The translations under genes and the position numbers were made by a program. Below the pieces are notes generated by a model that saw only the letters and a list, made by a program, of their open reading frames with translations, did not search any database and was not told the DNA's origin. Shown here piece after piece: positions 1 to 64,000 of a stretch of 64,000 bases of DNA. The stretch covers positions 262,762 to 326,761 of IMG/VR virus record IMGVR_UViG_3300020429_000529. One strand, 5' to 3'. Source of the DNA: a virus. Positions within the stretch are counted from its first letter, which is position 1; every line of letters starts with the position of its first letter.

Positions 1-1
1 C

Positions 2-1249
2 GATAGCGGCAAGTCTTCGCTGATTGATGTGTATCTCGAAGATATCCTCGAAGATGATTCGATCAACATTCAGGTTATCAACGCCCCTGAAGTTCTCGAT
101 GACTTTGCGTTCCTTGCGGTCAATCGATCGAATCTTGCTGGTTCGATGACCGAATCGCAGCAAGGTCGAGTATTTGGTCTTGTCCTTGATAACCGAGGCG
201 TTTGGGATGTTTTGATTGGTCCCGAGGCTATTCTGCGAGAGACAGATACCGGCGGTGTATTCTCATGGCTGAGCGAAGAGTATACAAGAGAACTCATCGA
301 TGACGATGAGGCGTATGACTTCGAGTTCAATAATCCTGCTGGCTTGCCTTCAGAGGTACGCAATGCGATCTCATTGATTCCTGTTCCTGGGTATCCTCAA
401 GTTTGGACGCTTCGTATAGAGAAAGGCGTCAAGGATTATCTGAGGGCTCAGCGAACGGGCGCTAATCGCAACTCAACAACAGGTTGTTCTGTTGATATTG
501 ACATTCTGGTAACAGGCAGATTTACCGGCGTTCAAGGCATCTGCAGAGTCACAGTCTTCTTTGACGTTTACTGCGTATTCGATACTGGACTTTGTGATGT
601 CTTCTGGAATCTCATCAATCCGCCAGAGCCTTCTGGTCCAGATTTGATTGAGAACACGCTGGCTTTCTCGTATCAGTCGCTTACTGACTGTAATAACTTG
701 ACCCAGGACGCCGATGGAGACAATACAGAGATCAATGCTCCTGTTCTTGTCAATGTCACAGGCGTTCCTGTCTTTGAGAATGGCAATGGTCTGCTTCTTC
801 TTAAGTCCTACTATTCTGCCGAAGTTCAAGGCTTCTACTTCCCGAGAGGCGAAGACCTCACTGGTGTTCAGTATGAAGACTGTTCGTCTATTGGAGACAA
901 CTTGCAGCTTGCAACGAGGCTGAATACGCCTGCAATCTATCTGCCTGATGCGCCAGATCAACCGATTACGGACCCGTTTGAGATTGCTGCTCAGTTGGAG
1001 ACCGCGGATTCGTACATGTACGTCAAGCCTGCTTTCCAGTTCCCCTCTTCAGATCCCCAGAGAGATTGCGGGGCCGAAGAGATTGTCATTATTGGCGTAG
1101 GCTACCAGTTCAAGAACTGGACCGCAAGTTCGGGAACTCGTTCGGACGATATCATGTTTGGAGTCAATCTTGTTCTGCCAGGCGGCGTGTTTGCCTCGCC
1201 TGATTTGGACCTTTGTTACCGATACTACTACAACAGAGAGGAAAGCTAA
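2..1249 (+). CDS. hypothetical Cys-containing protein, 5' partial (frame open to window edge; track start 29 is GTG)
   Basis: 406-aa ORF with no upstream in-frame stop to position 2; no recognisable motif. Confidence 0.45.
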   Translation, partial: DSGKSSLIDVYLEDILEDDSINIQVINAPEVLDDFAFLAVNRSNLAGSMTESQQGRVFGLVLDNRGVWDVLIGPEAILRETDTGGVFSWLSEEYTRELIDDDEAYDFEFNNPAGLPSEVRNAISLIPVPGYPQVWTLRIEKGVKDYLRAQRTGANRNSTTGCSVDIDILVTGRFTGVQGICRVTVFFDVYCVFDTGLCDVFWNLINPPEPSGPDLIENTLAFSYQSLTDCNNLTQDADGDNTEINAPVLVNVTGVPVFENGNGLLLLKSYYSAEVQGFYFPRGEDLTGVQYEDCSSIGDNLQLATRLNTPAIYLPDAPDQPITDPFEIAAQLETADSYMYVKPAFQFPSSDPQRDCGAEEIVIIGVGYQFKNWTASSGTRSDDIMFGVNLVLPGGVFASPDLDLCYRYYYNREES

Positions 1250-1253
1250 GTAG

Positions 1254-3092
1254 ATGGGCGCAGGGTTTGACGAACGCAAATGGTGGCACACGGTCCTCAA
1301 GGTTGGGTCCGTAGAGTTCGGTACGCGAAGCGGAGCCGCTAACGAAAACCCTAATGACCGCATCACGGCCCGAGTTCAAGACACCTGCGATCTCACAGAC
1401 ATTCCTGTTCCCGCATGGGATGGTCTTGAATCGCCAGGCTTCTTTATCTACCGTCCTGCTTTTTCTGATGTTTCCGGTGCTGCCAAATCGATTGATTCCT
1501 ATGAGGCCGCTCTGGACCTTGCAAATAGAGAGCCGTTCACTTACGAACTCTACGTTGCGTATGATTCGTCGGATGCGGCCTGTACGTCCGTAGGGCCTCC
1601 TGACACTCATGATCCCGATGTCTTTGCCTCTCTTGTAGATGACTCAGGATTCGTTTTCACGCATCCCAATATCGCTTCCATCGATTCGATCGGCTGTTGC
1701 GAGATCGATCTTGACAATCCAGGCGACCCCATCGATCCAGGCGATCTTCAAGAGTGTTCTCGCATCTGGTATTTGAACATTGAGTCATCGCCGCAGTTGT
1801 ATTCGTATGACTTTGACAGAGATCCTGGACAAGAGATTCAGGATCGAGGGACTATGGCGTCTCAGCTTGGCGGCGGAACTAACTTCCATGACATCGCATG
1901 GGATGATGACGATCGCCTTTGGGCGCTTGAGTCAAACGGTATCCGTCAGGTTATTCCTGGTAGTTCTTCGGTCATTGCGAATGTTCTCGATTATGTCACT
2001 ATAAACGGCGATACATCAAACCTTTTCCCTATATCTGTGAGTTCTACGGGTTCTCCGGGTATGACTTACAATCAGCATAGCCAGCGCATGTATATCACTG
2101 CAAATGGTAGGCTGTTTGAGTTGGAGAAATCAGGAACAGGACAGCCCCCGACTCAGTGGACTGTTGTTAGAGAGGCGGAAGTAGGAAGCGATCTTCGAGA
2201 CCTGGCTGCAGACCCTTTCAATGTGATGTATTGCATCTACAACGATAGTCTTGCAACTGTAGACATTGCAGATGCCTTCGGCACCGTTCAGTATGTCAAT
2301 GGCGAAACAGGCGACTTTGCCAACTTCAATGGTCTTGATTTCATCCTAACCCTTGGAGGCGGTAGTCTCGCAACGCTATATGGTCTTGATGTAAACGGAG
2401 ATCTGGTTGAGATTGATTTTACTGATGGATCGAAGACGATCATATCGGATATCACGAGTAATCCTGGTTCAGTAGTTGGAGCATCAAGTTGTCAGGCTGG
2501 CGAAGACAATAGCCTTCCGGTCTTCCCGTTCTATCCCGGCGAATCTCCATGGATTTTCATGCTCGATGGTTCTACCTCTATGAATGGCATTCCTACTGGT
2601 CGAACCGATTCGAGGTGGGAGATTCTCATCAACGGTATGGTTGCCTTTATCGAGAACAATGTTCGTCTTGGAGAAAGGTTGTTCATGGTTATCTTCGGAC
2701 CAGAAAACAACCCAAGACTTTCGCCAGAGTTCACTTTCAACACAACAGGAGATATTCAGGCGGCGGCTGATTGGATTGCAAACCTTTCTGGTTTCCCAAA
2801 CAACTCCACGAACTTCTGCGAAGATGGACCCTTCAATACATCATGGCTTGATAGGCCCGAGTTCAACGGTATCAACAGCATCGTTGTTGTTGGAGACGGC
2901 GGATTCAGCGCGCCTTGCCCTGATGGAAGCGCGCTATTTGACTACTGTTTGAACGTTATCACGTTCTTCAGAGGGAACGGAAATCCCAACGCTATTGTTC
3001 GAGCGGTTGGCATCTACCCCAGTTCAGACGGACGAGCCGACTTGATGCAGTTGGGCGCGGCTGGCGACGGCGGTTACACGGAATGGATCTAA
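1254..3092 (+). CDS. hypothetical protein with C-terminal vWA-like domain
   Basis: 612-aa ORF; DxSxS-like motif IFMLDGSTSM followed by a Rossmann-like segment suggests vWA/MIDAS. Confidence 0.5.
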   Translation: MGAGFDERKWWHTVLKVGSVEFGTRSGAANENPNDRITARVQDTCDLTDIPVPAWDGLESPGFFIYRPAFSDVSGAAKSIDSYEAALDLANREPFTYELYVAYDSSDAACTSVGPPDTHDPDVFASLVDDSGFVFTHPNIASIDSIGCCEIDLDNPGDPIDPGDLQECSRIWYLNIESSPQLYSYDFDRDPGQEIQDRGTMASQLGGGTNFHDIAWDDDDRLWALESNGIRQVIPGSSSVIANVLDYVTINGDTSNLFPISVSSTGSPGMTYNQHSQRMYITANGRLFELEKSGTGQPPTQWTVVREAEVGSDLRDLAADPFNVMYCIYNDSLATVDIADAFGTVQYVNGETGDFANFNGLDFILTLGGGSLATLYGLDVNGDLVEIDFTDGSKTIISDITSNPGSVVGASSCQAGEDNSLPVFPFYPGESPWIFMLDGSTSMNGIPTGRTDSRWEILINGMVAFIENNVRLGERLFMVIFGPENNPRLSPEFTFNTTGDIQAAADWIANLSGFPNNSTNFCEDGPFNTSWLDRPEFNGINSIVVVGDGGFSAPCPDGSALFDYCLNVITFFRGNGNPNAIVRAVGIYPSSDGRADLMQLGAAGDGGYTEWI

Positions 3093-3096
3093 AGAC

Positions 3097-4098
3097 ATGA
3101 GAGACCCATTTGATGTAAGCCAATATAAGACCTCGTTCGGATTGAACGAGAACTATGCGCCGAATCCGTTTTCATTTGCGGACTTCACGGAATCTTTCGC
3201 GCTCGTCGCAGAGCAAATCCGAATCCGTCAAGCATGTATTCATGTTGGTTTCGGAGTCCCGCTTGATCTGTTTACCAATGTAGAAGCGTATGATGTTTCT
3301 ACTCCTGCTTCGTTGACCGCTGGTGTTGAGCTATTTCAAGATGCTGTGATTGAGCTTGTTGAAGGTACGATCGTCGATCAGTATGCCAAACTACCAGGCT
3401 GCGGTCTGTTTGTTGGCTTCTACACGTTTACCTCGAACGGGTTGCCGATTCTTGGCGAAGGCAGTATCGCTCCGGGAGGAGTCTTTACACCTCCGCCCAA
3501 TCCTGATGACATCACAGACATCATTGATTTTGCGAAAGCGATTGGCGAACGCCTCAATGACATCATCTTTGCGCTGAACAACCTCAGTTTCATTCATGGC
3601 AAGATGGTTTACGAGTATCCGTTCGATGATTCTTGCGGCGATGATTCGTCTCCTGGAACTACTGGTATTTCATCATCGCCAGGTTCATCGCCTGGTTCGT
3701 CAGTTGGTTCATCGGTTGGTTCATCGCCTGGTTCGTCAGTTGGTTCAACGCCTGGAACAGGATCTTCGCCTGGTTCGTCGGTTGGTTCGTCCCCGAACTC
3801 CTCGGTCGGATCATCCCCGAACTCTTCGGTCGGCTCTTCGCCTGGTTCTTCTCCGAACTCGTCGCCTGGTTCGTCTGGCGGTTCTACTCCATCAACAGGA
3901 ACCTCTGCCGGTTCGTCGCCTGGCTCCTCGCCCGGTTCCACTCCGGGAACTGGTTCGTCGCCTGGATCTTCGTCTGGTTCTCCGCCTCCAACGTCGCCAG
4001 GCTCTTCGTATGCTTCGTCTTACGGAAGCCCGCCCGTTTCGCCTGTCGGACCCGTTTCGCCGATCTTTGTCGGACCTGGTGTTGCTCCTGTTGTTTGA
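3097..4098 (+). CDS. Ser/Pro/Gly-rich tandem-repeat (mucin/collagen-like) protein with N-terminal globular domain
   Basis: Globular N-terminus of about 185 aa, then SSPGSSVGSSPN-type repeats encoded by a DNA tandem repeat. Confidence 0.6.
   Translation: MRDPFDVSQYKTSFGLNENYAPNPFSFADFTESFALVAEQIRIRQACIHVGFGVPLDLFTNVEAYDVSTPASLTAGVELFQDAVIELVEGTIVDQYAKLPGCGLFVGFYTFTSNGLPILGEGSIAPGGVFTPPPNPDDITDIIDFAKAIGERLNDIIFALNNLSFIHGKMVYEYPFDDSCGDDSSPGTTGISSSPGSSPGSSVGSSVGSSPGSSVGSTPGTGSSPGSSVGSSPNSSVGSSPNSSVGSSPGSSPNSSPGSSGGSTPSTGTSAGSSPGSSPGSTPGTGSSPGSSSGSPPPTSPGSSYASSYGSPPVSPVGPVSPIFVGPGVAPVV
3655..4020 (+). repeat. coding tandem repeat (about 18-36 nt units, ggttcatcgcctggttcgtcagtt-like)
   Basis: Direct repetition visible in the sequence; encodes the S/P/G repeats of the 3097..4098 protein. 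Confidence 0.7.
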
Positions 4099-4140
4099 TG
4101 TTTTGGCCGATACACATGATGAAGCCTTTTGGGATGATGA

Positions 4141-5187
4141 ATGTCAGAAGAGAAGCCTATACAAGTCAAGGTTCCCCCGCCGCGTAAGCGTACTGATCCG
4201 AATGCGGCCTACGTCAACAAAGGCGCAGTTCCGGGCAACCCTGACAATCTAACAGTTGAAGACGAAAAAGCCTTCAAGGGATTCATCCCTAAGAGAGGCG
4301 AGATGGCTCTGTATGATTCGCAAGGCCACAACTTCAACATGCGAGATATGTATCGAGGGTCTCAGGCCTTTCTCGTACTTTCAGGCCCATCCCTCAATGA
4401 TCTTGATCTCTCGCAACTAAGAGAGCGACGAGGCATTGTGACAATGGGAGTCAACAACTCATGGGTTGTTTACAAGCCTCAACTGTGGGTTGGAGTAGAT
4501 GATCCTGGTAACTTTGTAGACATTGGATGGAAAGACCCGTCCATAACAAAATTCGCGCCCGCTGGACATTGGCATAAATGGCTTGTTGTCAAAGAAGACA
4601 ACGGCACATTCCGCCGTAGCCAGTTTAGAGTAGATGACATGCCTAATGTCTACTACTTCCGTCGAAATCACAACTTCGATGTCAAGAAGTTTCTTCATGA
4701 ACCAACCGTCAACTGGGGCAACGAAGACAAGGGCATTGATGCTCTTGGCATCAAGGGCGGGCGGAGCGTTATGCTCTCTGCCATCAAGATTCTCTACTAC
4801 CTTGGCTTTCGAACAGTCTATATGCTCGGCGCTGATTTCAACATGTCATCGGAAGCAGACCAGAACTATGCTTTCAAGCAGCACAGAGACAGCGTAAGCG
4901 TTTCGGGAAACAACGCAACCTATGCAAAGCTCAACAAGCGATTCACTGCCTTGCTGCCAGAGTTTGCGGAAGAAGGCATGCGAATCTACAACTGTTACCA
5001 GAAGAGCGGACTAACAGCCTTCCCGTACATGAGCTACAACGAAGCATTGGATCGAGCCAGCGCAACTTGTAGTAAGCCCATTGACACTGAGGGTTGGTAC
5101 GATCGCAAGGAACGAGAACGAGCAGCAGAGAAGGCTCGCAAAGAGCAAGAAAAGAAGGCAACTGAAGAAGATGAAAGCGATCGCTGA
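4141..5187 (+). CDS. hypothetical protein, possibly glycosylation-associated
   Basis: 348-aa ORF co-oriented with two glycosyltransferase-like genes; basic/acidic charged C-terminal tail. Confidence 0.45.
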   Translation: MSEEKPIQVKVPPPRKRTDPNAAYVNKGAVPGNPDNLTVEDEKAFKGFIPKRGEMALYDSQGHNFNMRDMYRGSQAFLVLSGPSLNDLDLSQLRERRGIVTMGVNNSWVVYKPQLWVGVDDPGNFVDIGWKDPSITKFAPAGHWHKWLVVKEDNGTFRRSQFRVDDMPNVYYFRRNHNFDVKKFLHEPTVNWGNEDKGIDALGIKGGRSVMLSAIKILYYLGFRTVYMLGADFNMSSEADQNYAFKQHRDSVSVSGNNATYAKLNKRFTALLPEFAEEGMRIYNCYQKSGLTAFPYMSYNEALDRASATCSKPIDTEGWYDRKERERAAEKARKEQEKKATEEDESDR

Positions 5188-5882
5188 TGGCTTTGTACGT
5201 TTCACTCTATACGAAGAACACCGCTTACGAGCGCATTGCAGGTCAGCTTGAAGAATCGCTGAAGAAGTTCGACCTTCGATACAGGATCTACGCTGTCGAA
5301 GATCAGGGTTCTTGGACAAAGAACACCTATCTCAAGCCAGAGATCATTCTCGATGCCTTAGAAGGCGAAGAAGACATCGTATGGATTGATGCAGACAACA
5401 TTGTGTTGAGGCGTCCTGAAATCTTCGATGACGGTATGGATTGCGATCTGGCTTTTCATAGTCGCATTGTAGATGATGGAGGTTGGAGTCCGTTGTCATC
5501 GGTCATGTATTGGAAGCAGACCCAGGCTTCTTTAGAGCTTGTTCGCCTCTGGCTTCAAAAATCTCAACAAGGCGAGCTTGGCAAAGCAGGCATGAAGATC
5601 CCTATTGAGCCTGGTTTTGTTACTCGCATGTATACAGACAAGCAAAACGATCAACATACGTTTGCAAATGCCCTTTGGGAACTGGTCAACGAAGGTCGAG
5701 ACATTCGCATTGCTGACCTTTCCAAGGAGTATGCCATGAAGTACGACTCTGTGAATCGAAGCTTCCATGATCCATACATCATCATGAATCAGGCGGGTCG
5801 TATCTTCAACAAGGAAGAAGGATCAAAGCTAAGAAAGAAGCGCCTAAATACCGATAGAGATAGATGGGAAGGCGCTGTCTGA
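5187..5882 (+). CDS. nucleotide-diphospho-sugar transferase-like protein
   Basis: WIDADNIVL DxD-type motif; start ATG overlaps upstream stop (ATGA). Confidence 0.5.
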   Translation: MALYVSLYTKNTAYERIAGQLEESLKKFDLRYRIYAVEDQGSWTKNTYLKPEIILDALEGEEDIVWIDADNIVLRRPEIFDDGMDCDLAFHSRIVDDGGWSPLSSVMYWKQTQASLELVRLWLQKSQQGELGKAGMKIPIEPGFVTRMYTDKQNDQHTFANALWELVNEGRDIRIADLSKEYAMKYDSVNRSFHDPYIIMNQAGRIFNKEEGSKLRKKRLNTDRDRWEGAV

Positions 5883-5894
5883 GAAGGAGCAAAC

Positions 5895-6566
5895 ATGGAC
5901 GCAGTAAGGATTTTCATTGGTAGCGACATCTACAATGTCAAAGCCGAACGAGCATTGATTTTCTCGATCAAGCATCACGCTTCAGTCCCGACTGAATGCA
6001 ACATCATGAGTCGCTTTGACCAGCATGACACATGGACAGGTTGGCAATGCACCGATCAATGGGCTACCTGTTTTAGCTGCTTCCGTTGGGGCATCCCTGC
6101 GGCATGCGGATTCGAGGGTCGAGCGATCTACCTTGATAGCGATCAGATCGTTCTTGCTGACATTGCAAAGCTTGCAAACATCGATCTCAAGGGGAAGGCG
6201 ATTGGAACAACGCCAAAGCGGGAATCAAGCGTTGCTGTATTTGATTGCGCCAAGTTCAAGGATTGGGATCAGTTCCAGCTTGATGATCTGAAGCAGAACG
6301 CTGCCAAGACCAATCAATACTACAAGTGGCTACGAGATGCTGGCGAGGTAGAGTTTATCTCTCAGCAATGGAACTGTCTCGACGGAGAGGGCTACGATCC
6401 TGTTGAAACGAAGCTCATCCATTACACAAAGCTCACAACGCAGCCTTGGCATCCTGCTCCGCACCGATTCCAATACAAGCCGCATGATCGACCTGATCTT
6501 GTTGAAATCTGGCGTCGTTACTATGAGCTATCCTACGATCATCCCGAAGTTCTTGAGAAGCCCTGA
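5895..6566 (+). CDS. glycosyltransferase family 8-like (glycogenin/LPS glucosyltransferase fold)
   Basis: GT8 signatures YLDSDQIV (DxD) and HYTKLTTQPWHP (HxxGxxKPW-like). Confidence 0.6.
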   Translation: MDAVRIFIGSDIYNVKAERALIFSIKHHASVPTECNIMSRFDQHDTWTGWQCTDQWATCFSCFRWGIPAACGFEGRAIYLDSDQIVLADIAKLANIDLKGKAIGTTPKRESSVAVFDCAKFKDWDQFQLDDLKQNAAKTNQYYKWLRDAGEVEFISQQWNCLDGEGYDPVETKLIHYTKLTTQPWHPAPHRFQYKPHDRPDLVEIWRRYYELSYDHPEVLEKP

Positions 6567-7255
6567 GGCTTCGCCGATAGTTCTCGGCACTTGTGATGGT
6601 CATGGTAGTTGGGCTGCTTGAGTTCATCTGAGCCGCTCGGAGCCATAATACCGACAAGGGCATGCTTATCGCCTCGAAGAACCGGCGCTCCTTGATGGAG
6701 CATCCAGGAATCGAACAAAACTCCGTGACCTCTCTTGACAGGCAAGGATAGAACCTTGCCTTTTTCATTGATGCGGAACTGAGTTTCTCCGCCAATGAGG
6801 TTGTGACTTTGAAAGTCAGATAGGTAGACAAGGAATGTCCCGATTCTATCAGGCATGAGGTCATTGGCATCAGAATGCCAAGTAAACTTCATTTCGGGCT
6901 TGTACCAGAGATATTGCCAGAGAGCATAGTTGAGATCCCAGGGATCCTGATCGGACTTGAGAAGATCCGTAACCAATGGCCTCATGTCTTCAAGCATTCT
7001 TGCAAAGTAGAGTTGTTCGGGAGTCATTCTGGATGCCTCAAGACAAAGCACATCTCGACGCTTCTTCTTGATCTTCATCTCTTTGTAATGATTGCCAACT
7101 CCGCCTTCGACGTAGGATTCTTTGGCGTTGTCTCCAATGAGATTCAAGATGTAGTCGCACTCTTCCGGAGTGAGAAGCTCAAAGGTCCATATCTTACCAG
7201 GCAAGACCTCTTTCATCTTGAGTTTTTTGATATCTACCTTGAAGTGTTCTCCCAT
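6539..7255 (-). CDS. 2OG-Fe(II) oxygenase, prolyl 4-hydroxylase-like (track ORF extends to 7468 with a low-complexity N-terminal extension)
   Basis: HSDANDL...TFLVYL...GGET.F....PK.G.LFDS..LHQG matches the P4H HxD...H/R-x-S core; ATG at 7253-7255. Confidence 0.6.
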   Translation of the reverse strand: MGEHFKVDIKKLKMKEVLPGKIWTFELLTPEECDYILNLIGDNAKESYVEGGVGNHYKEMKIKKKRRDVLCLEASRMTPEQLYFARMLEDMRPLVTDLLKSDQDPWDLNYALWQYLWYKPEMKFTWHSDANDLMPDRIGTFLVYLSDFQSHNLIGGETQFRINEKGKVLSLPVKRGHGVLFDSWMLHQGAPVLRGDKHALVGIMAPSGSDELKQPNYHDHHKCRELSAKPQGFSRTSG

Positions 7256-7515
7256 GGAATCTCTATCGGCTGGCCGATATAGATCACATGAGCGGATGCC
7301 CTTTTCACAACAAATCTCAAGGCAAGTTCCCAGAGCAGGATAAATTCGAGTTGTCGATTTATCGTCTTCACCCTGACGGGGCTCGTTTTGAGAACGCAGA
7401 ACCGACTCGGAAGGGCGAGGCTCACAAAAGTCAGAATGAAGTTGGAGCCCTGAGATTCTGCGGACCATTTGTCCATGCTGGCTCTTGCGGAGTTTGGGCT
7501 TATCCGCCTGTTGAT

Positions 7516-8133
7516 ATGGACATCACATATCTCGGAGATGGTCAATGGGATATCGAGCAACTCTCTGAGTATACGCCGCTTGACGGAATCGTTATCAAGA
7601 ACAACTTGAGAACAGAAGACAAGTTTCGATCGATCTATCGAGGCGGTCGGATCAGCGTGGGTAAAGTTGAACCTGATCTGATTCAGATTTGGACTGGTTG
7701 CATATTCAGAACTCCGCCAGGTTGGGGACTGCATGTTCGTCAGCCGATCAACTTCCCCGAGGCCTACAACAGGCCATATCACATACAAGAGGGGATCATT
7801 GAGTCAGACTGGCTTTGGTATGACATCTGGTTCAATATCAGATTTCATCGCGCAAATGAAAAAGCAGAACTACGCAGAGACATGTGGCCTCCTCTTGCTC
7901 AGCTTGTCCCCGTGAGAAAAGAAGCCTACGCAAAATGCGAAATCCAAGATCAGATCCTTGACAGGAAAACTGAGGATGGCGGCGAGGTTTGGGATTTCTG
8001 GCAAGAATACAACTACCAGAAATGGTACGCAAAGAACGAAAAAGACTCACGAACGTATAATCGGACCAGGAAGCTTCTCAGAGGCGAGGAGCGAAGAAAT
8101 AAAAGCCCCGGAGACGGTTCCACAAAGGAATGA
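7516..8133 (+). CDS. hypothetical protein (alternative longer start at 7288 would overlap the oxygenase gene)
   Basis: First ATG that clears the divergent gene is at 7516; no motif recognised. Confidence 0.35.
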   Translation: MDITYLGDGQWDIEQLSEYTPLDGIVIKNNLRTEDKFRSIYRGGRISVGKVEPDLIQIWTGCIFRTPPGWGLHVRQPINFPEAYNRPYHIQEGIIESDWLWYDIWFNIRFHRANEKAELRRDMWPPLAQLVPVRKEAYAKCEIQDQILDRKTEDGGEVWDFWQEYNYQKWYAKNEKDSRTYNRTRKLLRGEERRNKSPGDGSTKE

Positions 8134-9213: not shown

Positions 9214-10866
9214 TTAGTCGGTCAGCGATCCCGACATGAACGACGAGATGACGTTCGGAGTCGCCGTGTCGAAGCCAACAACATCGAGCATTCCCGGGTC
9301 GCTGGGGTCAGCGATCGAGAAGCCGTTGGAGTTCATCGCAACGACTGCGAGCTTTGCATCCTCAACCCTCTTGGCGCGGTAGCGCTTGAGAGCCTCGAAC
9401 GGGTGGATCGAGCCGTAGTAAGTCTCCGAGTCCGTGAGGACCATGAAGGAGTCGAAGTCATCCTGCAGCGACATGGCGTGCGTCATGGGCAGAGAGCAGT
9501 CCGTGCCGCCGTAGGTGAGACCCGACATCTTCTTGAGAACCTGGTCAAGACGCATACGCGGAGTGATTCCAGCGTCCTTGATTCCCGTATCGAAGACCGT
9601 GATCTCGTAGTTGTTCTCGACGCGAGCCGTGACCATGCTGAGTACCGCCGCAGCCTCCGCGCAGGAGACGTTTTCGATACCGCTGCAAGCAACGCCCATC
9701 GAGCCCGAGGCGTCGATTCCGATGAAGTAGTTCTTACCCGTCGCCTCGACGTTGCCGAACGACGCGTAGAAGGCCTCATCCAGAGCATCAACGATGCGCT
9801 GGTCCGCCTGCCAGGTAAGCTTGCCTCGGAATCCTCCGCCCTGCGAGTAGGTCTTGAGCGCTACAAGGACCGAGAGCGGGTGCACTCGGCTCTTGCGCAG
9901 GTACGACTCGTCCGTGAGCTTGTCAAGAACGATCGCACGGTTCGCGCTCTTACCCGTACCAAGCACGCCGTAGCTCGTCAGACGACCGAGCGAACGGATC
10001 AGCGCCGTGAGCGGCATGCCCGGAAGCATGACCTCCCAAACCTCGCCCTTCGAAGCGAACTCCTTCGGGATCAGTTCGTGCGGCAGGTTGATCTTGTCCG
10101 CGCGGTACTTCTCGATGAGGTCAGCGACCTCCTGAGCCGAACCCGCAGCCTTCATCTGCTCCGCAGCGCGGAGAATCTTCAGGTCTGCAGCGATACGCCC
10201 CGGAAGCTTGCCCTTCGTGACGTAATCGTAGACGCGGTTGTGCTTGGTGTCGCCGAACGGGTGAGCCTTACGCATCAGGTCGCGGTGCGACCAGCGAGAC
10301 TGCGTAACGCCCTCCTCGGTAACGCGCTGCGGGTACTTCACAACCTGGTACGCCAGGCGCGAAGCATCCATCTCGTTGTACCAGCGAGCGATCGCCTTAC
10401 GGAGGCCCGTACCCCAGCCGCGCATCGCCGAAACGTACTGCGCGAACTGGAACAGGTGCGTACCGATACGAGCGACCTTCGGCAGCGAAGCGAGCGCGTA
10501 GGAACGCACTTCGGCGTCCTCAGACGCAGCCGCGATCGCAAGAGCGAAGAGCGCAGGCTCGTTCTTCGGAGCGCGTCCGGCGTCAGAGATCGCGACGATC
10601 TCATCGACCACTCGCTTTCCGTCCTCCTTGAGGCAGCGCAGGATGCAGTTGGCGTTGTCGATCGTGAGCTTGCGCTCGCCGACGTAGTAAGTACCGCCCT
10701 CTGAGCCGAGGATCAAGAATCGGCTGAGCCGATCCCAATCGGAGACCTGAAAGACGTACCCGCCTGCGTTGTTCTTGACCTGATTCTTCCCAAGAGCCTT
10801 GCGGGTCTGAGGAGTCGTTCGCATTCCAAAGTGAGTTGAGTACGCCATTTCTGTCACCCCTTTCAA
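9214..10866 (-). CDS. rsr: Ro60/TROVE-domain ribonucleoprotein (Rsr) with C-terminal vWA domain
   Basis: 550 aa; TROVE-like N-terminal region and C-terminal vWA with DxSGS MIDAS (IGIDASGSM); same architecture as Ro60/Rsr. Confidence 0.8.
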   Translation of the reverse strand: MKGVTEMAYSTHFGMRTTPQTRKALGKNQVKNNAGGYVFQVSDWDRLSRFLILGSEGGTYYVGERKLTIDNANCILRCLKEDGKRVVDEIVAISDAGRAPKNEPALFALAIAAASEDAEVRSYALASLPKVARIGTHLFQFAQYVSAMRGWGTGLRKAIARWYNEMDASRLAYQVVKYPQRVTEEGVTQSRWSHRDLMRKAHPFGDTKHNRVYDYVTKGKLPGRIAADLKILRAAEQMKAAGSAQEVADLIEKYRADKINLPHELIPKEFASKGEVWEVMLPGMPLTALIRSLGRLTSYGVLGTGKSANRAIVLDKLTDESYLRKSRVHPLSVLVALKTYSQGGGFRGKLTWQADQRIVDALDEAFYASFGNVEATGKNYFIGIDASGSMGVACSGIENVSCAEAAAVLSMVTARVENNYEITVFDTGIKDAGITPRMRLDQVLKKMSGLTYGGTDCSLPMTHAMSLQDDFDSFMVLTDSETYYGSIHPFEALKRYRAKRVEDAKLAVVAMNSNGFSIADPSDPGMLDVVGFDTATPNVISSFMSGSLTD

Positions 10867-53632: not shown

Positions 53633-53634
53633 TC

Positions 53635-54998: not shown

Positions 54999-56219
54999 AT
55001 GCAGTTTGCTTTCGATGGAATCGATATCGCCAAGCCGTCTAATCTTCGTCGCATGAACCTCAACCGAGACGAAATTGATCGTCTGCGCATGTTTTGTTCA
55101 TCGGAGGAACTCCGATTCATCCCGCATCCTGCTTTTGAGTCGGGCACCGAGTTCCCCGACCCTATGCCAGAGTACCATCCGGACATTACCTGGTTTGTGA
55201 ATCTTGTTTCTTCGGATGCAACTGATGTCCACAGAGTTCGCCCTCCTGTGGATATTATTCGTTTGACTGCTGCTGAAGAGGACATGCTCTTTAGCCGGTA
55301 CAACTTCCATCGACGCCGACTGTATCTTGTTCAGGAAGAATGGATCAAGAACGGTCGCAGAAGCATGTTGATTCGAGACATTCGAGCGATTCTCCATGAC
55401 ATGCTTATGGTTGAACAGATCGAGGAGCGAATCTCGCATTTCAACCTGGGACTCTGCGTTGCGATGGCGAAGAAGATTCGACGAGAGGGCGACTACGAAA
55501 CGATGTCTGAGTTGTGGAGCGAATGCAACATCGCTCTTCTTCGGGCGATCAGAGGATTCGATTCCAGTCGAGGTTTCAAGTTCAGCACCTACGCTTGTCG
55601 AGCCATGCTCAAGGCCATGAGCAGAGAAAGGCAGCGCAACGCCAAGCATCGCAGCAGGTTTATCCCCGCTTCGTGCTTTGGCAGAGAAGGCTCTGATGCC
55701 GAAGAGCGTCATGCCTTCATGAATGCCATGGGCGAGTCTCCTGATGAGTTAGGCGATATCGTTGACTCGAATCATGATTCCTTCATTCACGATCAGGTTC
55801 AATTCCTTCTAACCAATCGCCTTGATTTCGGTCCTGAGCATTCTCTGACCGATCAAGAGAGAACTGCTATCCTTCACAGGTTTGATCCTAATGGAGGTAG
55901 CGGTATGCAGGGGCTCGTGACGCTTGAGAACATCGGCGAGATCATGGGCGTTACGAAGGAACGAGTCAGGCAAGTTATCAACAGCGGACTTTCCAAGATC
56001 CGCGACATCATCATGCACTTTGACCCGACTTCTGATTTTGAACTCGAAATTCCGCCCAAGCAGGAAGAAATCTCTGACGAAGATGATGTCAGAAGCGTCT
56101 TTACTGTTGTGGCGACAAACCAGGAGCCTTACGATGACGGATCTCTCGCTGCCACAGTTACACAAGACGATGATTTCGGAGTTTCAATGCTCGGGATGCT
56201 CTCGGGGGTTGAATCCTGA
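54999..56219 (+). CDS. sigma-70 family RNA polymerase sigma factor
   Basis: Region 2 RGFKFSTYACRAMLKAM; region 4 HTH LVTLENIGEIMGVTKERVRQVINSGLSKIR. Confidence 0.7.
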   Translation: MQFAFDGIDIAKPSNLRRMNLNRDEIDRLRMFCSSEELRFIPHPAFESGTEFPDPMPEYHPDITWFVNLVSSDATDVHRVRPPVDIIRLTAAEEDMLFSRYNFHRRRLYLVQEEWIKNGRRSMLIRDIRAILHDMLMVEQIEERISHFNLGLCVAMAKKIRREGDYETMSELWSECNIALLRAIRGFDSSRGFKFSTYACRAMLKAMSRERQRNAKHRSRFIPASCFGREGSDAEERHAFMNAMGESPDELGDIVDSNHDSFIHDQVQFLLTNRLDFGPEHSLTDQERTAILHRFDPNGGSGMQGLVTLENIGEIMGVTKERVRQVINSGLSKIRDIIMHFDPTSDFELEIPPKQEEISDEDDVRSVFTVVATNQEPYDDGSLAATVTQDDDFGVSMLGMLSGVES

Positions 56220-58124: not shown

Positions 58125-59792
58125 GTGGACAAAATAATGTCTGGACCCATTCTGTGGCTGATAGTTGGAGGAGCCTTCATCGGCCTCTTCATCTTTGTGA
58201 TGATGGTCATCAAATCGCTCTACAAGCGATGCCCCTCCAACAAGGTGCTGGTCATCTATGGTAAAGTCGGCGGCGACTCTGCCAAGTGCATGCACGGCGG
58301 CGGTTCGATGATTATCCCGCTGATTCAAGACTATGCCTACCTGAGTCTTGAACCGCTCGTCATCGACATCCCTCTTGAAGGCGCGCTCTCGCTCAACAAC
58401 ATCCGAGTCAATGTTCCGTCAACCTTCACGGTCGGTATCTCAACCGAACCGACCCTCATGGCGAACGCTGCCGAGCGTCTGCTTGGTCTGAACCAGAAGC
58501 AGATTCAGGATCAGGCGCAGGACATCATTCTCGGTCAGCTTCGTCTCGTGATCGCTACCTTGTCGATTGAAGAGATCAACAAGGACCGCGAGAAGTTCAT
58601 GAATCTCGTCAACGAGAACGTGACGCAAGAGATCAACAAGGTCGGTCTCGAACTTATCAACGTCAACGTTCGAGACATCACCGACGAAAGCGGGTACATT
58701 ACCGCTATCGGTCAGCGCGCTGCCGCCGAAGCTGTCAACAAGGCCCGAGTCGAAGTCGCTGAGCAGGAGCGAGACGGCGAGATGGGCGTTGCCAAGGCGA
58801 GCCGAGAGAGGGCCGTCAAGGTCGCTGAGGAAGATTCGCTCGCTGAACAGGGCCGTAAGACCGCTGAGCAGTCGCAGCGTATTCGGCTTGCTCAGCTTGA
58901 GGCTGAGGCTGTTTCTGGCGAAGCCGAATCTCAGCGGACCCGAGAGATTGCCGTTGCTCAGAGAGAGGCTGAGACGGCTTCTGCGATGGCCGAGGCTGCT
59001 CAGTCTCGTCGTATCAAGATCGCTACCGCTGAGGCGACTGCAAGACAGGGCGAAAACGAAAGCTCTGCTCTGGTCGCCAAGTCTGACGCCGAGCTTGCCA
59101 AGACGCGAGCCGAATCGTCGCAGACTGCTGAAACGGCGCAAGCCTCGGCTCGTCGAGCGATTCTCGAAGCCGAGGCTGAGGCCGAGACTGCTCGACTCCA
59201 CAAGGAACTGGTCGTTCCCGAAGAGGCCGAGAAGAGGCGAATCGAGATTGAGGCGGAAGCCGAAGCGGAACGAGAGCGTCGTCGAGCGAAGGGCGAGGCC
59301 GATGCGATCTTCGCTCGCTACGATGCCGAAGCTCGCGGTACGCAGGCGGTGCTTGAGGCGAAGGCCGAGGGCTATCGCAAGATGATGGAGGCTTGCGCTG
59401 CGAATCCTGACATCGCTCCGACGCTGCTGCTTATCGAGCAGTTGCCGACGCTTGTTGATGCTCAGGTCCAGGCGATCTCGAACCTCAAGATCGACAAGAT
59501 CACGGTTTGGGAAGGCGGCGGCGGAGCCAACGGTCAGACCTCGACCGCCAACTTCCTCCGCAACATTGTTCAGGTTCTTCCTCCGCTAACCGATCTCGCC
59601 CGTCAGGCGGGGATCAAGCTGCCTGACGCGCTCGGTCAGATCGAGGAGATGGCGAATATGAGCATCAAGAACCCGCAGGTTGTTGATGTTGATGCCATCG
59701 ACGAAGATGAAGAAACCGGAGAAGCCGTTTCGCCGGGTTCGACGGGCAACGCGAAACTTGCTGCTACTGTCATCGGCGGCAAGGACGACTAA
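58125..59792 (+). CDS. SPFH/Band-7 flotillin-like protein (YqiK-like)
   Basis: N-terminal TM, SPFH core, long EA-rich coiled coil. Confidence 0.7.
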   Translation: MDKIMSGPILWLIVGGAFIGLFIFVMMVIKSLYKRCPSNKVLVIYGKVGGDSAKCMHGGGSMIIPLIQDYAYLSLEPLVIDIPLEGALSLNNIRVNVPSTFTVGISTEPTLMANAAERLLGLNQKQIQDQAQDIILGQLRLVIATLSIEEINKDREKFMNLVNENVTQEINKVGLELINVNVRDITDESGYITAIGQRAAAEAVNKARVEVAEQERDGEMGVAKASRERAVKVAEEDSLAEQGRKTAEQSQRIRLAQLEAEAVSGEAESQRTREIAVAQREAETASAMAEAAQSRRIKIATAEATARQGENESSALVAKSDAELAKTRAESSQTAETAQASARRAILEAEAEAETARLHKELVVPEEAEKRRIEIEAEAEAERERRRAKGEADAIFARYDAEARGTQAVLEAKAEGYRKMMEACAANPDIAPTLLLIEQLPTLVDAQVQAISNLKIDKITVWEGGGGANGQTSTANFLRNIVQVLPPLTDLARQAGIKLPDALGQIEEMANMSIKNPQVVDVDAIDEDEETGEAVSPGSTGNAKLAATVIGGKDD

Positions 59793-59837: not shown

Positions 59838-60176
59838 ATGAACGCAAATCGCATGAAGATTCTAACCGAAGCGCTTAGGTCGGGTCGCTTTAAGCAATCT
59901 CAAGATCCTGAGATTCTAAATGAGAGATGCGACGATCCTGAGCAGTGCTGCGTCGGTGGAGTAGTCTTGAATCTTTTACAGGATTATGGACTGACTCGCA
60001 AGCCTATATGCGCAAGAAAATGGCTTGGCATGAGCGAAGCAGAAATAAGTCGATTTGCCGCATGGACAAGTCAAATGAACCTGCTAAAAACGTTCGATGA
60101 AATCGCAGATTTGATCGATGACGAGGTTCAGAAGCAGACCACTGACAGCGGATTCGCTATGGTATGGAGACCATGA
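59838..60176 (+). CDS. hypothetical protein
   Basis: 112-aa ORF. Confidence 0.4.
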   Translation: MNANRMKILTEALRSGRFKQSQDPEILNERCDDPEQCCVGGVVLNLLQDYGLTRKPICARKWLGMSEAEISRFAAWTSQMNLLKTFDEIADLIDDEVQKQTTDSGFAMVWRP

Positions 60177-61153
60177 TTCGTTACGGCCTTTGCTGCATCT
60201 CGAACGAGCTTCAACGCCAAGGCTCGAAGTTCCAGACAATGACCTTCAAGCGATTCAGCGCGCTTGATCGAGATGAAGCTGTCGCAACGCTCTGCGGACG
60301 GTACGCCAACAATCTCCGAGTCATCAGCGCCATTCTTGACCAATGCGCCGAGCATGGCTGGATCTATCGAGCTTCATCCGATATTTTTCCGCTGATGACT
60401 CATCCTGACTCTGGCCTCGTCTACGACGACCTGCCTAATGCTGCTGAACTCGATGCTCTGTTCGCAGAGTGCGCCGATAAGATCAGCAGGCACGGTATCC
60501 GAGTCTCTTGTCATCCAGATCAGTTCAATGTCCTCGCTTCCAAGAATGATCGGGCGGTCGAAAACACGATCCGAGAACTCGATCATCATGGTTGGTTCAT
60601 GGACAAGATCGGCGCTCCTCGGAGCTATGAAGCTCCCATCAACATCCATGTCAACTGCTCAAGCGACTCGCCCGAAGTCGTTGCTCGTCGCTTCGCCAGA
60701 AACCTCGCTCGCTGCTCTGAGGCTGTCCGTAGCCGCTTGGCCGTCGAGAACGAAGACAAGGGCATCTGGACCGCCGAAGCCCTCTGCGGCGTCCTCTCGC
60801 TCGAAGCGAACGTTCCTGTCACCTTCGACAATCTCCATCATGCCTGCAATCCCGGCAGCATCAGCGAACAGGCGGCTTTTGAGCTATGCTACCTGACTTG
60901 GCTGCATTATGGAGATATCGTTCCTCTCTTTCATTACTGCGAGGCGCTACCAGACCAGCCCAACCCTCGCAAGCATGCAGAGATGCCTGTTGGCTATCCG
61001 AACAACTACGGCATGCCCGTTGACTTCGATATTGAACTCAAGGGCAAGGACGATGCTATCAAGCAGCTTGAGATCAATGTCGCTCCTGTCCGGGAAGAGC
61101 AACGGGCGAGGGCCGCTGAGTTTGTCCGCCAGGCAGAAAGCATTGGAATATGA
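60164..61153 (+). CDS. uvdE: UV damage endonuclease (UvdE/UvsE family)
   Basis: MIRYGLCCISNEL N-terminus and TIM-barrel endonuclease-like length and pattern. Confidence 0.6.
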   Translation: METMIRYGLCCISNELQRQGSKFQTMTFKRFSALDRDEAVATLCGRYANNLRVISAILDQCAEHGWIYRASSDIFPLMTHPDSGLVYDDLPNAAELDALFAECADKISRHGIRVSCHPDQFNVLASKNDRAVENTIRELDHHGWFMDKIGAPRSYEAPINIHVNCSSDSPEVVARRFARNLARCSEAVRSRLAVENEDKGIWTAEALCGVLSLEANVPVTFDNLHHACNPGSISEQAAFELCYLTWLHYGDIVPLFHYCEALPDQPNPRKHAEMPVGYPNNYGMPVDFDIELKGKDDAIKQLEINVAPVREEQRARAAEFVRQAESIGI

Positions 61154-61659
61154 CGAAGATCGCTGTATATGCTGGTAGCTTTGATCCGCCTACGAACGGT
61201 CATCTTTGGATGATCGAGCAGGGCTCCAAGATGTTCGATCAACTGATCGTCGCTGTCGCTGTCAATCCAGAGAAGAAGTATTCCTTCGACATCGACCAGC
61301 GATTCGATTGGCTACAAGAGATTGTTGGACCCTTTGCTACTCATTACGGCGCAGAACTCTGCACGATCGGAGACTCGTTTCTGGTTGATTTCGCGCAGCA
61401 GATGAAAGCCTCATACATACTGCGAGGTATCCGAAACGAAGGCGACTTCCTTTATGAGCGAAGCATGAGGAATGTCAACGGAGACCTGCATCCTGACATA
61501 CAGACGGTCTTCCTGATGCCTCCCCGAAACCTATGCGAGATTTCTTCCAGTCTCGTCAAGGGCCTTGTTGGACCGAGGGGCTGGCAGAGAATTGTCCGAA
61601 ATTACGTCCCAGAATGCGTTTTCAGGGGCCTTGAAAAGGCTGCCGAAACCGACCACTGA
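61150..61659 (+). CDS. coaD: phosphopantetheine adenylyltransferase
   Basis: IAVYAGSFDPPTNGH, RGIRN, ISSSLVKG motifs. Confidence 0.8.
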   Translation: MTKIAVYAGSFDPPTNGHLWMIEQGSKMFDQLIVAVAVNPEKKYSFDIDQRFDWLQEIVGPFATHYGAELCTIGDSFLVDFAQQMKASYILRGIRNEGDFLYERSMRNVNGDLHPDIQTVFLMPPRNLCEISSSLVKGLVGPRGWQRIVRNYVPECVFRGLEKAAETDH

Positions 61660-61677
61660 CGGCTCCATCAGGATATC

Positions 61678-62907
61678 ATGGGTATGGGTAGCGAAGACAA
61701 AGTTCGGATCGCATCGGATTTTGCGACGTTTCCGTTCCGCCTGATGTCGCAGAATGCGCCTATCAACTGGGGACAAGGAGCAGAGCCGCAGATCCAACTG
61801 CGCCAGAAGGATGTAAATCTTCGTCTTGCTGAAGACCTGCTAAAGAGCAATGCTCCGATCCTCTACGCTGATGATGTTCTTCTGACCCACAGCGTCGAAG
61901 GCAAGGATCGTATCGATCTTCGCAAGATCCGAGACATCCCCACCGCTGTACCAGCATTCGACCGCATGTTCATCGAAGTCGATATCAGCGACAACATCGC
62001 CGAGACTGTCGATGCGCTCGCCGGATATGTCGTCAGCGACCCGTTCAACAGAGAGTTGACCGAGAAGCTGAGAGACACGATCTACTCTCATGCGAACAAG
62101 CTGAACAGCCGCAACATACCTGTTACCGAGGATGACATCAAAGGCATTGATGTCGAGAAGGCGGAAGGGAACGGCGACGACTCGATTGAGGAGTTGCAAA
62201 AGCTCTTTGCCGGATTCCGTATCCCCAAGTGGATTTTCCGCGCAGGTCCGATCGACAAGGAAAGCATTCCGATCATCGAGACCGCTCGCTTCATTGCCAT
62301 CTACCCGTATATCTATGGTCATCATATCAGCGACGACCGAGGCTCTCAATGCATCGGTCCTGTTGGATGCGTCTACTACATGGTCGATCCCAATAAGGGA
62401 CTCGTCCGCTCTCCCAATGGCGAGCCTTTCATGTTCTGGCTCGACCCGACAGAGGCCAATGAAGAGACGCACTACATCGAAAAGAATGCTGAGTATTTCC
62501 GAGACTGCGTAGAAACTGCGGCGGCTGTCTGTCTGCGATCCATGGCGCTGCTCAACTGCTCGAACGTCGAGATTGTCAAGACCGGCGAAACGAGCGAGGG
62601 CGGCAAGAAGGCGAGACAAGCTCGCCGCAAGCACGGCGGTCATCATCGAGGCGGCTTGAAGCACCATGAGCTTCGGGTCAAGGTCGGCAAGCAGTTGATC
62701 CGAGTCTCTGGCGACAAGGATTCGACAGGAGGCAGAGCCCTCGGTATGGTCCGCGGGCACTTCCGAGACTACAGTAGGGGCAAGGGCCTCTTTGGGCAGT
62801 TCAAGTATCCAGCGGTATGGGTTCCTCCCCATGCCCGAGGCAATGCAGAAAATGGCGTAGTCACCGCAGACTACGTTTTGACAGAAGGCAATAATGAAGA
62901 TTCATAG
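61678..62907 (+). CDS. hypothetical protein (409 aa)
   Basis: Long ORF; His/Arg-rich segment near the C-terminus. Confidence 0.45.
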   Translation: MGMGSEDKVRIASDFATFPFRLMSQNAPINWGQGAEPQIQLRQKDVNLRLAEDLLKSNAPILYADDVLLTHSVEGKDRIDLRKIRDIPTAVPAFDRMFIEVDISDNIAETVDALAGYVVSDPFNRELTEKLRDTIYSHANKLNSRNIPVTEDDIKGIDVEKAEGNGDDSIEELQKLFAGFRIPKWIFRAGPIDKESIPIIETARFIAIYPYIYGHHISDDRGSQCIGPVGCVYYMVDPNKGLVRSPNGEPFMFWLDPTEANEETHYIEKNAEYFRDCVETAAAVCLRSMALLNCSNVEIVKTGETSEGGKKARQARRKHGGHHRGGLKHHELRVKVGKQLIRVSGDKDSTGGRALGMVRGHFRDYSRGKGLFGQFKYPAVWVPPHARGNAENGVVTADYVLTEGNNEDS

Positions 62908-62950
62908 CAGATCTGGTAAACAGCAGTCAACTGTTCAAGACCGTCCGACG

Positions 62951-64000
62951 ATGGTCATGTATACCTGCGGCCCGACTGTTTATGACGATTCGCATATCGG
63001 CAATTTCCGCAGTTTTGTTATGGCTGATTCGCTCCGCAGATGGCTTGAATCGCCATTGCGTGTTGATAATCCTCCCAAAGTCCGACATGTCATGAACATT
63101 ACGGATATCGGTCATCTGACCGAAGATGATATCGACAGAATGACAATCGGTATTTCTCGGAGCGGAATGGCTTCTGTTGAACTGGTTGCCATTCATTACA
63201 CGAAGCGATTCATCGAAGATGCAAAGCTTTTGAATATCAAGGTGGCAAGCGAGGCAGATAACAATCCTCGTCTCATGCCTCGCGCATCCGATTATATTCA
63301 AGACATCATTGATGCAATCATGTCTATGATTGAAGTCTGCAAGGCTTATGTCACCGAGGACGGCGTGTTCTTCGACGTTTCAAGCTTTCCTCGACATGGA
63401 GAGGTTGCGGGAGATAGATTAAACGATCAACCAGGAATGGGCGGTCGTCTGACTTTTGAGCAGGCTGCCGGGAAAAGAAACCCCGAAGACTTTTTGCTTT
63501 GGAAGAAAGATTTCACGCATCTAATGACCTGGAAAAGCCCCTGGGGTAGAGGTTATCCTGGTTGGCATATTGAATGCTCGGTTATGGCCTCTGCAATGGG
63601 GCATGACGATATGACCGGCATCATTGATATCCATACCGGAGGCGAAGACAACGCCTTTCCTCATCATGAGGCAGAGAACGCTCAATCTTGCTCGATGTTC
63701 GGCAGAAACCCGCACAAGACCGTCTTCTCTCGCCACTGGTTCCATGTCGCTCATCTACAGATCAGCGACAAGAAGATGTCCAAGAGCGAAGGCACGTTCA
63801 TCCGCATCAAGGATCTGACGGAACTCGGCGTATCGGCTGCGGCGGTTCGCATGTTCCTTCTTTCCGCGCACTACAGAACAAACCTGCTCTACGATGGTAC
63901 AAGGTCAATCGCTCAGTACGAGCGCATGCTCGAAAAGTGGCGTCATATACCAGCGGCCCAAACAACGAGCGACGAGTTCAAGGAAGAGTTCGCAAGAGCC
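62951..64000 (+). CDS. cysS: cysteinyl-tRNA synthetase, 3' partial
   Basis: YTCGPTVYDDSHIGN (HIGH), KMSKS, WHIECS zinc motif; runs off the window end. Confidence 0.8.
   Translation, partial: MVMYTCGPTVYDDSHIGNFRSFVMADSLRRWLESPLRVDNPPKVRHVMNITDIGHLTEDDIDRMTIGISRSGMASVELVAIHYTKRFIEDAKLLNIKVASEADNNPRLMPRASDYIQDIIDAIMSMIEVCKAYVTEDGVFFDVSSFPRHGEVAGDRLNDQPGMGGRLTFEQAAGKRNPEDFLLWKKDFTHLMTWKSPWGRGYPGWHIECSVMASAMGHDDMTGIIDIHTGGEDNAFPHHEAENAQSCSMFGRNPHKTVFSRHWFHVAHLQISDKKMSKSEGTFIRIKDLTELGVSAAAVRMFLLSAHYRTNLLYDGTRSIAQYERMLEKWRHIPAAQTTSDEFKEEFARA

Follow-up and report, generated by a model that had tools for sequence, protein, structure and literature searches.

The window analysed here is a 64,000-nucleotide stretch of a virus record (IMG/VR record IMGVR_UViG_3300020429_000529, positions 262,762–326,761) in which genes with bacterial housekeeping names lie among many ORFans, and the question is to what kind of replicon it belongs. 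About 81 open reading frames (ORFs) cover 93% of the 64 kb by ORF listing and greedy gene calling, and the sequence reads well in the standard code; ORFs of at least 60 amino acids (aa) were scanned with Pfam, NCBIfam and PHROG, and RNAs were sought with ARAGORN and Rfam. The housekeeping-like genes comprise a GlnII-type glutamine synthetase on the minus strand (36164–37363; Pfam, NCBIfam) and, on the plus strand, a complete ABC transporter (51347–54615) made up of a binding-protein-like ORF (51347–52741), a permease (52811–53632) and an ATPase (53635–54615), followed by UvdE UV-damage endonuclease (60164–61153) and CoaD (61150–61659; both Pfam and NCBIfam), a 409-aa ORF (61678–62907; PHROG family phrog_20769) and the first 369 of the 478 aa of CysRS (62894–64000), whose gene, cysS, runs on for 330 bases beyond the window to window-equivalent position 64330. 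The original prediction had regarded such genes as more typical of a cellular chromosome, had singled out 60164–64000 as chromosomal in appearance, and had left open a megaphage, a bacterial genomic island or the edge of a prophage. The genes that it named are present by Pfam and NCBIfam (Ro60, NAMPT, Dam, peptide deformylase (PDF), a sigma factor, GlnII, the ABC transporter, UvdE, CoaD and CysRS), with NMNAT only weak, as are two tRNA arrays (11490–13133 and 24744–25150), overlapping stop and start codons (~10 same-strand gene pairs share 1 or 4 bases) and abundant ORFans: only ~24 of 80 ORFs reach the curated Pfam threshold for any domain, and ~70% have no Pfam domain. The region read comprised 80 kb, namely the window with its left (L001) and right (L005) flanks on a contig of ~498.6 kb.

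Exact-protein matches place the window at 209,022–273,021 of the ENA contig NODE_1289088_length_498610_cov_20, from a Tara Oceans reassembly, with overlaps that agree base for base, so that it lies 209 kb from one end of this 498,610-bp contig and 225 kb from the other. Identical proteins also occur on at least 11 further contig sets of 0.2–1 Mb, in NCBI record MDTC01013350.1 and in Tara scaffolds (for example TARA_128_DCM_0.22-3), the longest contig with an identical CysRS measures 498,618 bp, and the neighbouring genes are unchanged across every assembly compared. A sister genome, with a 98% identical 409-aa ORF and an 86% identical CysRS, occupies a 502,461-bp contig, and a more distant relative, 51% identical, is found on contigs of up to 486,961 bp (~487 kb). 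A discrete genome of well over 200 kb thus recurs at the same size, and because the lengths recur at discrete values they indicate a defined replicon of ~0.5 Mb, unlike an arbitrary chromosome fragment. GC content ranges from 46 to 58% along the window with no step, and neither GC nor tetranucleotide composition shows a break within it.

Homologues of GlnII, CysRS, UvdE, CoaD, flotillin (SPFH; 58125–59792, plus strand; Pfam) and the ABC binding protein are all found in GenBank phages; the top matches there come from metagenomic huge phages of 462–735 kb. GlnII is 42–46% identical to proteins of the 634–735-kb megaphages LR756501, LR756502 and LR745206 (and 59% identical to that of the relative L014), CoaD has counterparts in Lak megaphages and in LR756500, the ABC binding protein shares 35% identity with a protein of LR756511.1, and a DUF2201_N/VWA metallopeptidase-like gene with its adjacent AAA (MoxR-like) ATPase gene (32420–35673, minus strand; Pfam, phrog_1314 and phrog_1297) recurs at 37% identity and in the same adjacency in LR756511.1, a 595-kb huge phage (E 2e-73). 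Sinorhizobium phage Phosso and others provide matches to CysRS, and many Vibrio, Bacillus and Listeria phages provide matches to UvdE. For flotillin the matches include Vibrio phage KIT04 and a crAss-like phage, the phage homologues being annotated as flotillin. Further phage-family matches in the window and its flanks are phrog_20769, phrog_289, an InPase polyvalent-protein domain, a phrog_1770 resolvase and a tRNA nucleotidyltransferase. The metagenomic huge phages concerned (LR756500, LR756501–503, LR756511 and LR745206; 462–735 kb) are reportedly those described by Al-Shayeb et al. in 2020. They share with this genome the MoxR/VWA pair, GlnII, the ABC binding protein, CoaD (38%) and a glycosyltransferase-like gene, along with many tRNAs, aminoacyl-tRNA synthetase genes and a large ORFan fraction, but they differ in having no nucleotide similarity to it and no counterpart of most of its ORFans, and in coming from freshwater or the subsurface rather than the open ocean.

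NCBI (NCBIfam) equivalog cut-offs served as the measure of whether the housekeeping genes are of cellular grade. CoaD (157 against a cut-off of 103) is the sole gene tested that passes; GlnII (422 against 500), the full-length CysRS (304 bits against 340 for TIGR00435) and UvdE (117 against 124) fall below, and a divergent sigma-70-family factor (54999–56219, plus strand), in which Pfam finds regions 2 and 4 only, passes the superfamily model only. By these scores the housekeeping genes appear mostly not to be of cellular grade. The identity of CysRS to its matches runs at 100, 86 and 53% within its own lineage and then falls to ~40%, a level at which the nearest named cellular sequences come from Planctomycetota/Phycisphaerales. 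Only PF01406 was found in it, and most of the listed matches of cellular length (~500–560 aa) also bear a C-terminal PF23493; the enzyme is plausibly active though below the canonical cut-off.

A stretch of bacterial chromosome, for instance from a member of the Planctomycetota and either an ordinary region or a large genomic island, would account for the CoaD score, for the presence of full-length CysRS, GlnII, an ABC importer, PDF and a sigma factor, for the affinity of CysRS and for the lack of a phage structural gene in the 80 kb, and Planctomycetota have many hypothetical genes. Such a stretch would fit poorly, however, with the scores of CysRS, GlnII, UvdE and the sigma factor, with a CysRS so far from any cellular sequence, with the fraction of ORFs lacking a Pfam domain, with recurrent sizes of 498.6, 502.5 and ~487 kb and no compositional break, and with 38 tRNA genes in 80 kb (14 tRNA or tRNA-like genes in the window and 24 after cysS), many of them with duplicate anticodons. 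Nor did the 80 kb yield an rRNA gene, a ribosomal-protein gene or a core bacterial operon, and Rfam at its gathering threshold returned no RNA family but tRNA. The family of the 409-aa marker has no close relative in GTDB, where a search of 185,579 species genomes gave a single distant, partial match. We therefore consider a chromosomal origin highly improbable; genes shared with recognised phages, together with the absence of rRNA and ribosomal proteins from the region read, point instead to a viral replicon.

For the block that had been thought chromosomal, 60164–64000, a foreign origin is not supported. The correlation of its tetranucleotide deviation profile with that of the rest is r = 0.59, as against 0.63 ± 0.08 for 40 blocks of this length drawn at random, the ORF that separates coaD from cysS belongs to a phage-only family, 24 tRNA genes and a 141-aa GlyRS-like ORF follow directly after cysS in the 10-kb right flank, the gene order recurs in a relative and the scores of CysRS and UvdE lie below the cut-offs noted above; the idea of a chromosomal block thus lacks support. 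A search of 5.8 billion proteins gave 22 homologues of the 409-aa ORF, none of them named, including those on the ~487-kb and 502-kb sister genomes, and two distant homologues lie on IMG/VR viral contigs. In a third relative, whose CysRS is 53% identical, PDF, an M36 peptidase, CysRS, 22 tRNAs and a 142-aa GlyRS-like ORF stand in the same order as here, which argues that cysS is a stable, though variable, part of the lineage's translation island. Two other relatives (L011 and L015) are syntenic over the upstream module of PDF, OmpA/VWA proteins, ABC importer and 409-aa ORF at 30–49% identity; their loci lack the sigma factor, flotillin, UvdE, CoaD and CysRS and carry instead a T4-endonuclease-V-type Pyr_excise gene, HNH endonucleases and an RNA ligase.

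A prophage edge within the window, with 60164–64000 as host DNA, is extremely unlikely, even though the cellular names of uvdE, coaD and cysS might suggest it. Neither an integrase, recombinase or transposase among the ORFs of at least 60 aa nor att-like direct repeats in the 80 kb were found, which also tells against a genomic island; the block shares the composition of its surroundings and holds a phage-family ORF; phage-like content runs 10 kb further, in the form of the 24 tRNAs and a GlyRS-like marker that is found on IMG/VR viruses; and the neighbours are identical in every assembly, far from both contig ends. The megaphage option of the original prediction is thus supported, whereas its island and prophage-edge options find no backing.

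The same GlyRS-like marker links the genome to other large viral contigs. Its wider family of 232–310-aa proteins gave 407 matches, several of them on contigs of 458–482 kb, and its profile detected 55 IMG/VR viral contigs, including ones of 455, 461, 463, 482, 508, 519, 533 and 561 kb. The 20-kb stretches around the gene on IMG/VR contigs also hold NAMPT, GluRS-like, CysRS and ABC ATPase genes, and the neighbouring tRNA arrays reach 33 tRNAs on one contig (L033), which additionally shares three other proteins of the window and the ABC ATPase. On UViG_3300028558_000016 (482,156 bp) and UViG_3300033067_001661 (333,623 bp) the marker is 60–68% identical; such contigs resemble this genome in their very large adjoining tRNA arrays with NAMPT, GluRS-like and CysRS genes nearby but differ in local gene order and, in some, in the presence of amber-suppressor tRNAs, and none is close across the whole region. 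When phmmer was run with T4 TerL, portal, capsid, sheath and other hallmark proteins on 1.19 Mb of DNA from relatives and on the 80-kb region, the sole strong match was TerL in L074, with weak matches for gp15 in L074 and L049 and for gp23 in L056; a T4-like TerL, gp15 or gp23 lies within 10 kb of the GlyRS-like marker on three IMG/VR contigs.

Several observations weigh against a phage. The phmmer search gave no T4 hallmark match in the 80 kb of this genome, in which Pfam and PHROG likewise found no terminase, capsid, portal or tail gene. PHROG matches to 'minor head protein', 'virion structural protein' and 'endolysin' do occur, but all come from a single ORF, a stand-alone InPase domain protein (41558–42085, minus strand; Pfam) with ten PHROG matches, all at domain level, and were rejected as structural evidence: the InPase domain, a module of phage polyvalent, virion-packaged proteins, is phage-typical, yet this is not a structural gene. 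Most ORFans match no known phage in the PHROG and GenBank-phage searches, and the genome and its closest relatives were not found in IMG/VR searches or among GenBank phages: megablast against GenBank phages, tblastn of a 1358-aa ORFan against the same set and an IMG/VR scan with a 612-aa ORFan each returned no match. Two further points on the same side concern a published assembly. Weinheimer & Aylward 2022 report 85 Tara jumbo-phage bins (PMC9123017), the two largest of which, ERX556134_59 (498,491 bp, 630 proteins) and ERX556134_6 (488,497 bp), are single contigs from one run and belong to cluster PGC_A. This genome is probably bin ERX556134_59, a likeness of size and gene density and not of sequence, and that bin was classed as 'organism' by VIBRANT and received no completeness estimate from CheckV (PMC9123017).

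The remaining entries for these bins in that paper favour a phage. ERX556134_59 has a VirSorter2 dsDNA-phage score of 0.973 with 11 phage hallmarks, and 10 LAST matches to phages against 0 to giant viruses; ERX556134_6 has 12 hallmarks, a direct terminal repeat and Planctomycetes as its host predicted by tRNA match; and bins with any of 27 ribosomal-protein COGs had been discarded (PMC9123017). Both bins resemble the present genomes in being single contigs from the Tara Oceans 0.22–3 µm fraction; ERX556134_59 is within 0.02% of this genome in size, and ERX556134_6 within 0.3% of the 51%-identical relative (486,961 bp). Gene density is 1.26 per kb in ERX556134_59 and the window alike, and the host hint for ERX556134_6 agrees with the affinities of CysRS here. 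Neither bin is described gene by gene in the paper (PMC9123017). Another published lineage, the 'moraphages' (PMC12619734), was set aside because none of its genomes exceeds 307 kb and because it is predicted to infect Bacteroidota.

A non-viral giant extrachromosomal element of a marine bacterium, whether a megaplasmid or Borg-like, would also be expected to show a discrete, recurrent size of ~0.5 Mb and many auxiliary genes and would explain both the lack of structural genes in the part read and the VIBRANT label of the probable counterpart. We nevertheless regard it as very unlikely: Pfam domains revealed no replication, partition or conjugation genes in 80 of the 498 kb, megablast of bases 40000–64000 found no match in PLSDB, markers are shared with IMG/VR viruses, on some of which the GlyRS-like marker lies at most 10 kb from a T4-like TerL, gp15 or gp23, and the probable counterpart has the VirSorter2 hallmarks and its sister bin the terminal repeat described above. 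Least probable of all, with hardly any chance in our estimation, is a eukaryotic giant virus. Nucleocytoviricota also carry tRNAs and aminoacyl-tRNA synthetases, and the tRNA arrays, synthetase genes, eukaryote-like GlnII and Ro60 might be read in that direction; but sigma-70, PDF, OmpA domains, a binding-protein-dependent ABC importer, a coding density of 93% and overlapping stop and start codons are features of bacterial type, the relatives found are phages, and the published counterpart has no giant-virus match.

Taken together, these results make it very probable that the replicon is a huge phage. The window is best explained as an accessory region from the interior of an open-ocean tailed huge phage, whose genome of ~498.6 kb is complete or close to it; on this reading the bacterial-looking housekeeping genes are divergent phage-carried copies, and the host is probably a member of the Planctomycetota (Phycisphaerae-like). 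We further suggest, tentatively and as a possibility that we hold to be doubtful, that the genome belongs with its relatives to a family-level clade, so far undescribed, of 0.46–0.56-Mb oceanic Planctomycetota phages, which a conserved translation island (20–40 tRNAs, CysRS and minimal synthetase cores of 141–310 aa) would define. The GluRS- and GlyRS-like cores would then serve a role other than canonical tRNA charging, and Ro60 would act with a tRNA-like, Y-RNA-type partner from the adjoining tRNA array. Huge phages with tRNA arrays, aminoacyl-tRNA synthetase genes and metabolic genes have been known since 2019–2020, and the finding changes no concept; a public dataset probably holds the genome already. 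It does illustrate that cysS, coaD, uvdE, glnII and a complete ABC importer are on their own no sign of a chromosome once a phage genome reaches about half a megabase, and it draws attention to a group of ~0.5-Mb phages that recurs in the ocean and whose gene content has so far lacked a gene-by-gene description; their hosts are probably Planctomycetota, for which few viruses are known. In our view, the minimal synthetase cores beside cognate tRNA arrays, the GluR0-type channel, the tRNA-like element adjoining Ro60 and the MNWYK motif, all described below, outrank the question of the replicon in interest.

The housekeeping-like genes would be auxiliary genes carried by the phage, acquired long ago and since diverged, with the combined role of keeping the infected cell productive and redirecting it. 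Translation would be served by the ~38 tRNAs in 80 kb, CysRS, the truncated GluRS- and GlyRS-like cores, the CCA-adding enzyme and PDF (44761–45348, plus strand; Pfam), with Ro60 for RNA surveillance, and the phage's own sigma factor would redirect host RNA polymerase. NAMPT and the NMNAT-like protein could provide salvage of nicotinamide adenine dinucleotide (NAD), and CoaD could contribute to coenzyme A synthesis; GlnII, the ABC importer and the GluR0-type channel would handle nitrogen, Dam methylation and UvdE would protect and repair the genome, and flotillin and a PspA-like protein might remodel membranes.

The first tRNA array (11490–13133, minus strand; ARAGORN, Rfam) encodes two tRNA-Asp, three tRNA-Met and three tRNA-Pro with a 128-nucleotide (nt) tRNA-like element, and the second (24744–25150, minus strand; ARAGORN, Rfam) five tRNA-Glu (anticodon CTC in three to four, and TTC). 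Directly adjoining the five tRNA-Glu genes is a GluRS core of 280 aa (23885–24727, minus strand; Pfam, NCBIfam), which consists of the catalytic domain only, without an anticodon-binding domain, and scores 240 against a gltX cut-off of 290 and 170 against a GluQRS (YadB) cut-off of 277. The 141-aa GlyRS-like fragment (L005, 19976–20401) closes the array of 24 tRNAs; a short form of 142 aa is kept in the relative L080, longer forms of 232–310 aa occur on the IMG/VR viral contigs, and the minimal GluRS- and GlyRS-like cores lie below every equivalog cut-off. Amber-suppressor tRNAs with anticodon CTA were seen in relatives and IMG/VR contigs (L014 at 11266; L037 at 3472, 13728 and 19730; L033 at 14041), with none in the 80 kb of this genome, and hint at TAG recoding in parts of the marker-sharing group.

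Ro60 (9214–10866, minus strand), predicted to act in RNA quality control, carries the TROVE and vWA_Ro60 domains (Pfam E 5.8e-58 and 1.6e-38). The 128-nt tRNA-like gene lies 0.9 kb from it (11800–11927, minus strand), scores 50.9 bits with the Rfam tRNA model and is not called by ARAGORN. It has normal acceptor, D and T arms, 69 nt replace the 13-nt core of the anticodon arm, and its folding energy is −53.9 kcal/mol (z −3.4). Candidate identities are a tRNA with an intron and a Y-RNA-like partner for Ro60. A YrlA (Y RNA) match near Ro60 (11904–11974) was rejected, since it reaches only 24 bits against a threshold of 69 and bridges two adjoining tRNA genes, which makes it probably an artefact.

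Among features that the original prediction had not listed are the GluRS core, the InPase domain protein, flotillin and the MoxR-ATPase/VWA pair treated above, together with a GluR0-type channel, a ferritin-like protein (35734–36192, minus strand; Pfam) and a PspA/IM30-like coiled-coil protein (18201–18899, minus strand; Pfam match below threshold). The channel, of the GluR0 type of ligand-gated K+ channels (17017–18186, minus strand; Pfam, NCBIfam), has a signal peptide and glutamine/amino-acid-binding lobes split by a two-helix pore with a TIGYGD filter, and no match to it stood among the matches listed, from 15 of the 76 matching phage records. Next to it are NAMPT (15226–16788, minus strand), which shares 36–42% identity with genes of the IMG/VR viral contigs L075, L062 and L072, a 228-aa protein of no assigned family (14531–15217, minus strand) and the weak NMNAT-like ORF (13895–14530, minus strand), recognized by only a GSFNPIHDGH nucleotidyltransferase motif at 23 bits. 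A Dam-type N6-adenine DNA methyltransferase (29966–30814, minus strand; Pfam) and a SLOG/YAcAr-family protein (phrog_289; 43427–43810, plus strand), which has a 53%-identical counterpart on IMG/VR contig L033, lie further along. The ABC importer closes a conserved envelope/transport module (45428–54615, plus strand; Pfam, NCBIfam) that runs in the order NMT1/OmpA-like, VWA, OmpA, two coiled-coil ORFs, binding-protein-like ORF, ABC permease and ABC ATPase, an order that L011 and L015 share at 30–49% identity. No paralogue families were found.

Two comparisons with relatives concern the end of the window. UvdE (60164–61153) is matched at the equivalent place by Pyr_excise at L011 11548–12120 and L015 13411–13977, so the predicted UV-repair function is kept though the enzyme differs between this genome and these two relatives. 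Between this genome and the 502,461-bp sister, over 61678–64000, the 409-aa ORF is 98% identical but the adjoining CysRS only 86%, a contrast that reflects either uneven divergence or exchange of cysS.

At the other end, the 10-kb left flank holds the 1358-aa ORFan, whose C-terminal 415 aa enter the window (2–1249, plus strand; L001 gene table; no Pfam, PHROG or GenBank-phage match) from a start upstream of it, a 900-aa CCA-adding enzyme (phrog_2244) and the RuvC-like resolvase (phrog_1770). A putative protein-modification cluster follows on both strands (1254–8133; Pfam and PHROG scans, repeat search), with the 612-aa ORFan, a 333-aa Ser/Pro/Gly-repeat protein, an MptE/sialyltransferase-like protein, a 231-aa protein 28% identical to one of huge phage LR756500.1, a GT8 glycosyltransferase, a 2OG-Fe(II) oxygenase (minus strand) and a DUF6065 protein. 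In the gene of the 333-aa protein, some 30 tandem units of 12 nt (3673–4026) code for SSPG/SSVG-type tetrapeptides, and sialyltransferase-like, glycosyltransferase-like and GT8 genes come after it. The stretch 3097–8133 has the look of a cassette for hydroxylating and glycosylating a Ser/Pro-rich protein, possibly one of the surface.

A short peptide, NWY[KR], occurs seven times in the six-frame translation of the 80 kb, compared with 0.18 expected from shuffles, at window positions 8807, 41558–41561, 41581 and 42082 and at L001 2050 and ~5630. It was absent from the ten relatives' loci checked, except for one match in L033. As M(x)NWYK[IT]xK it opens four unrelated ORFs, including the InPase protein and a 353-aa ORFan; it also closes the InPase ORF and precedes the C-terminal extension of the CCA-adding enzyme, and this recurrent motif may be a targeting or cleavage tag.

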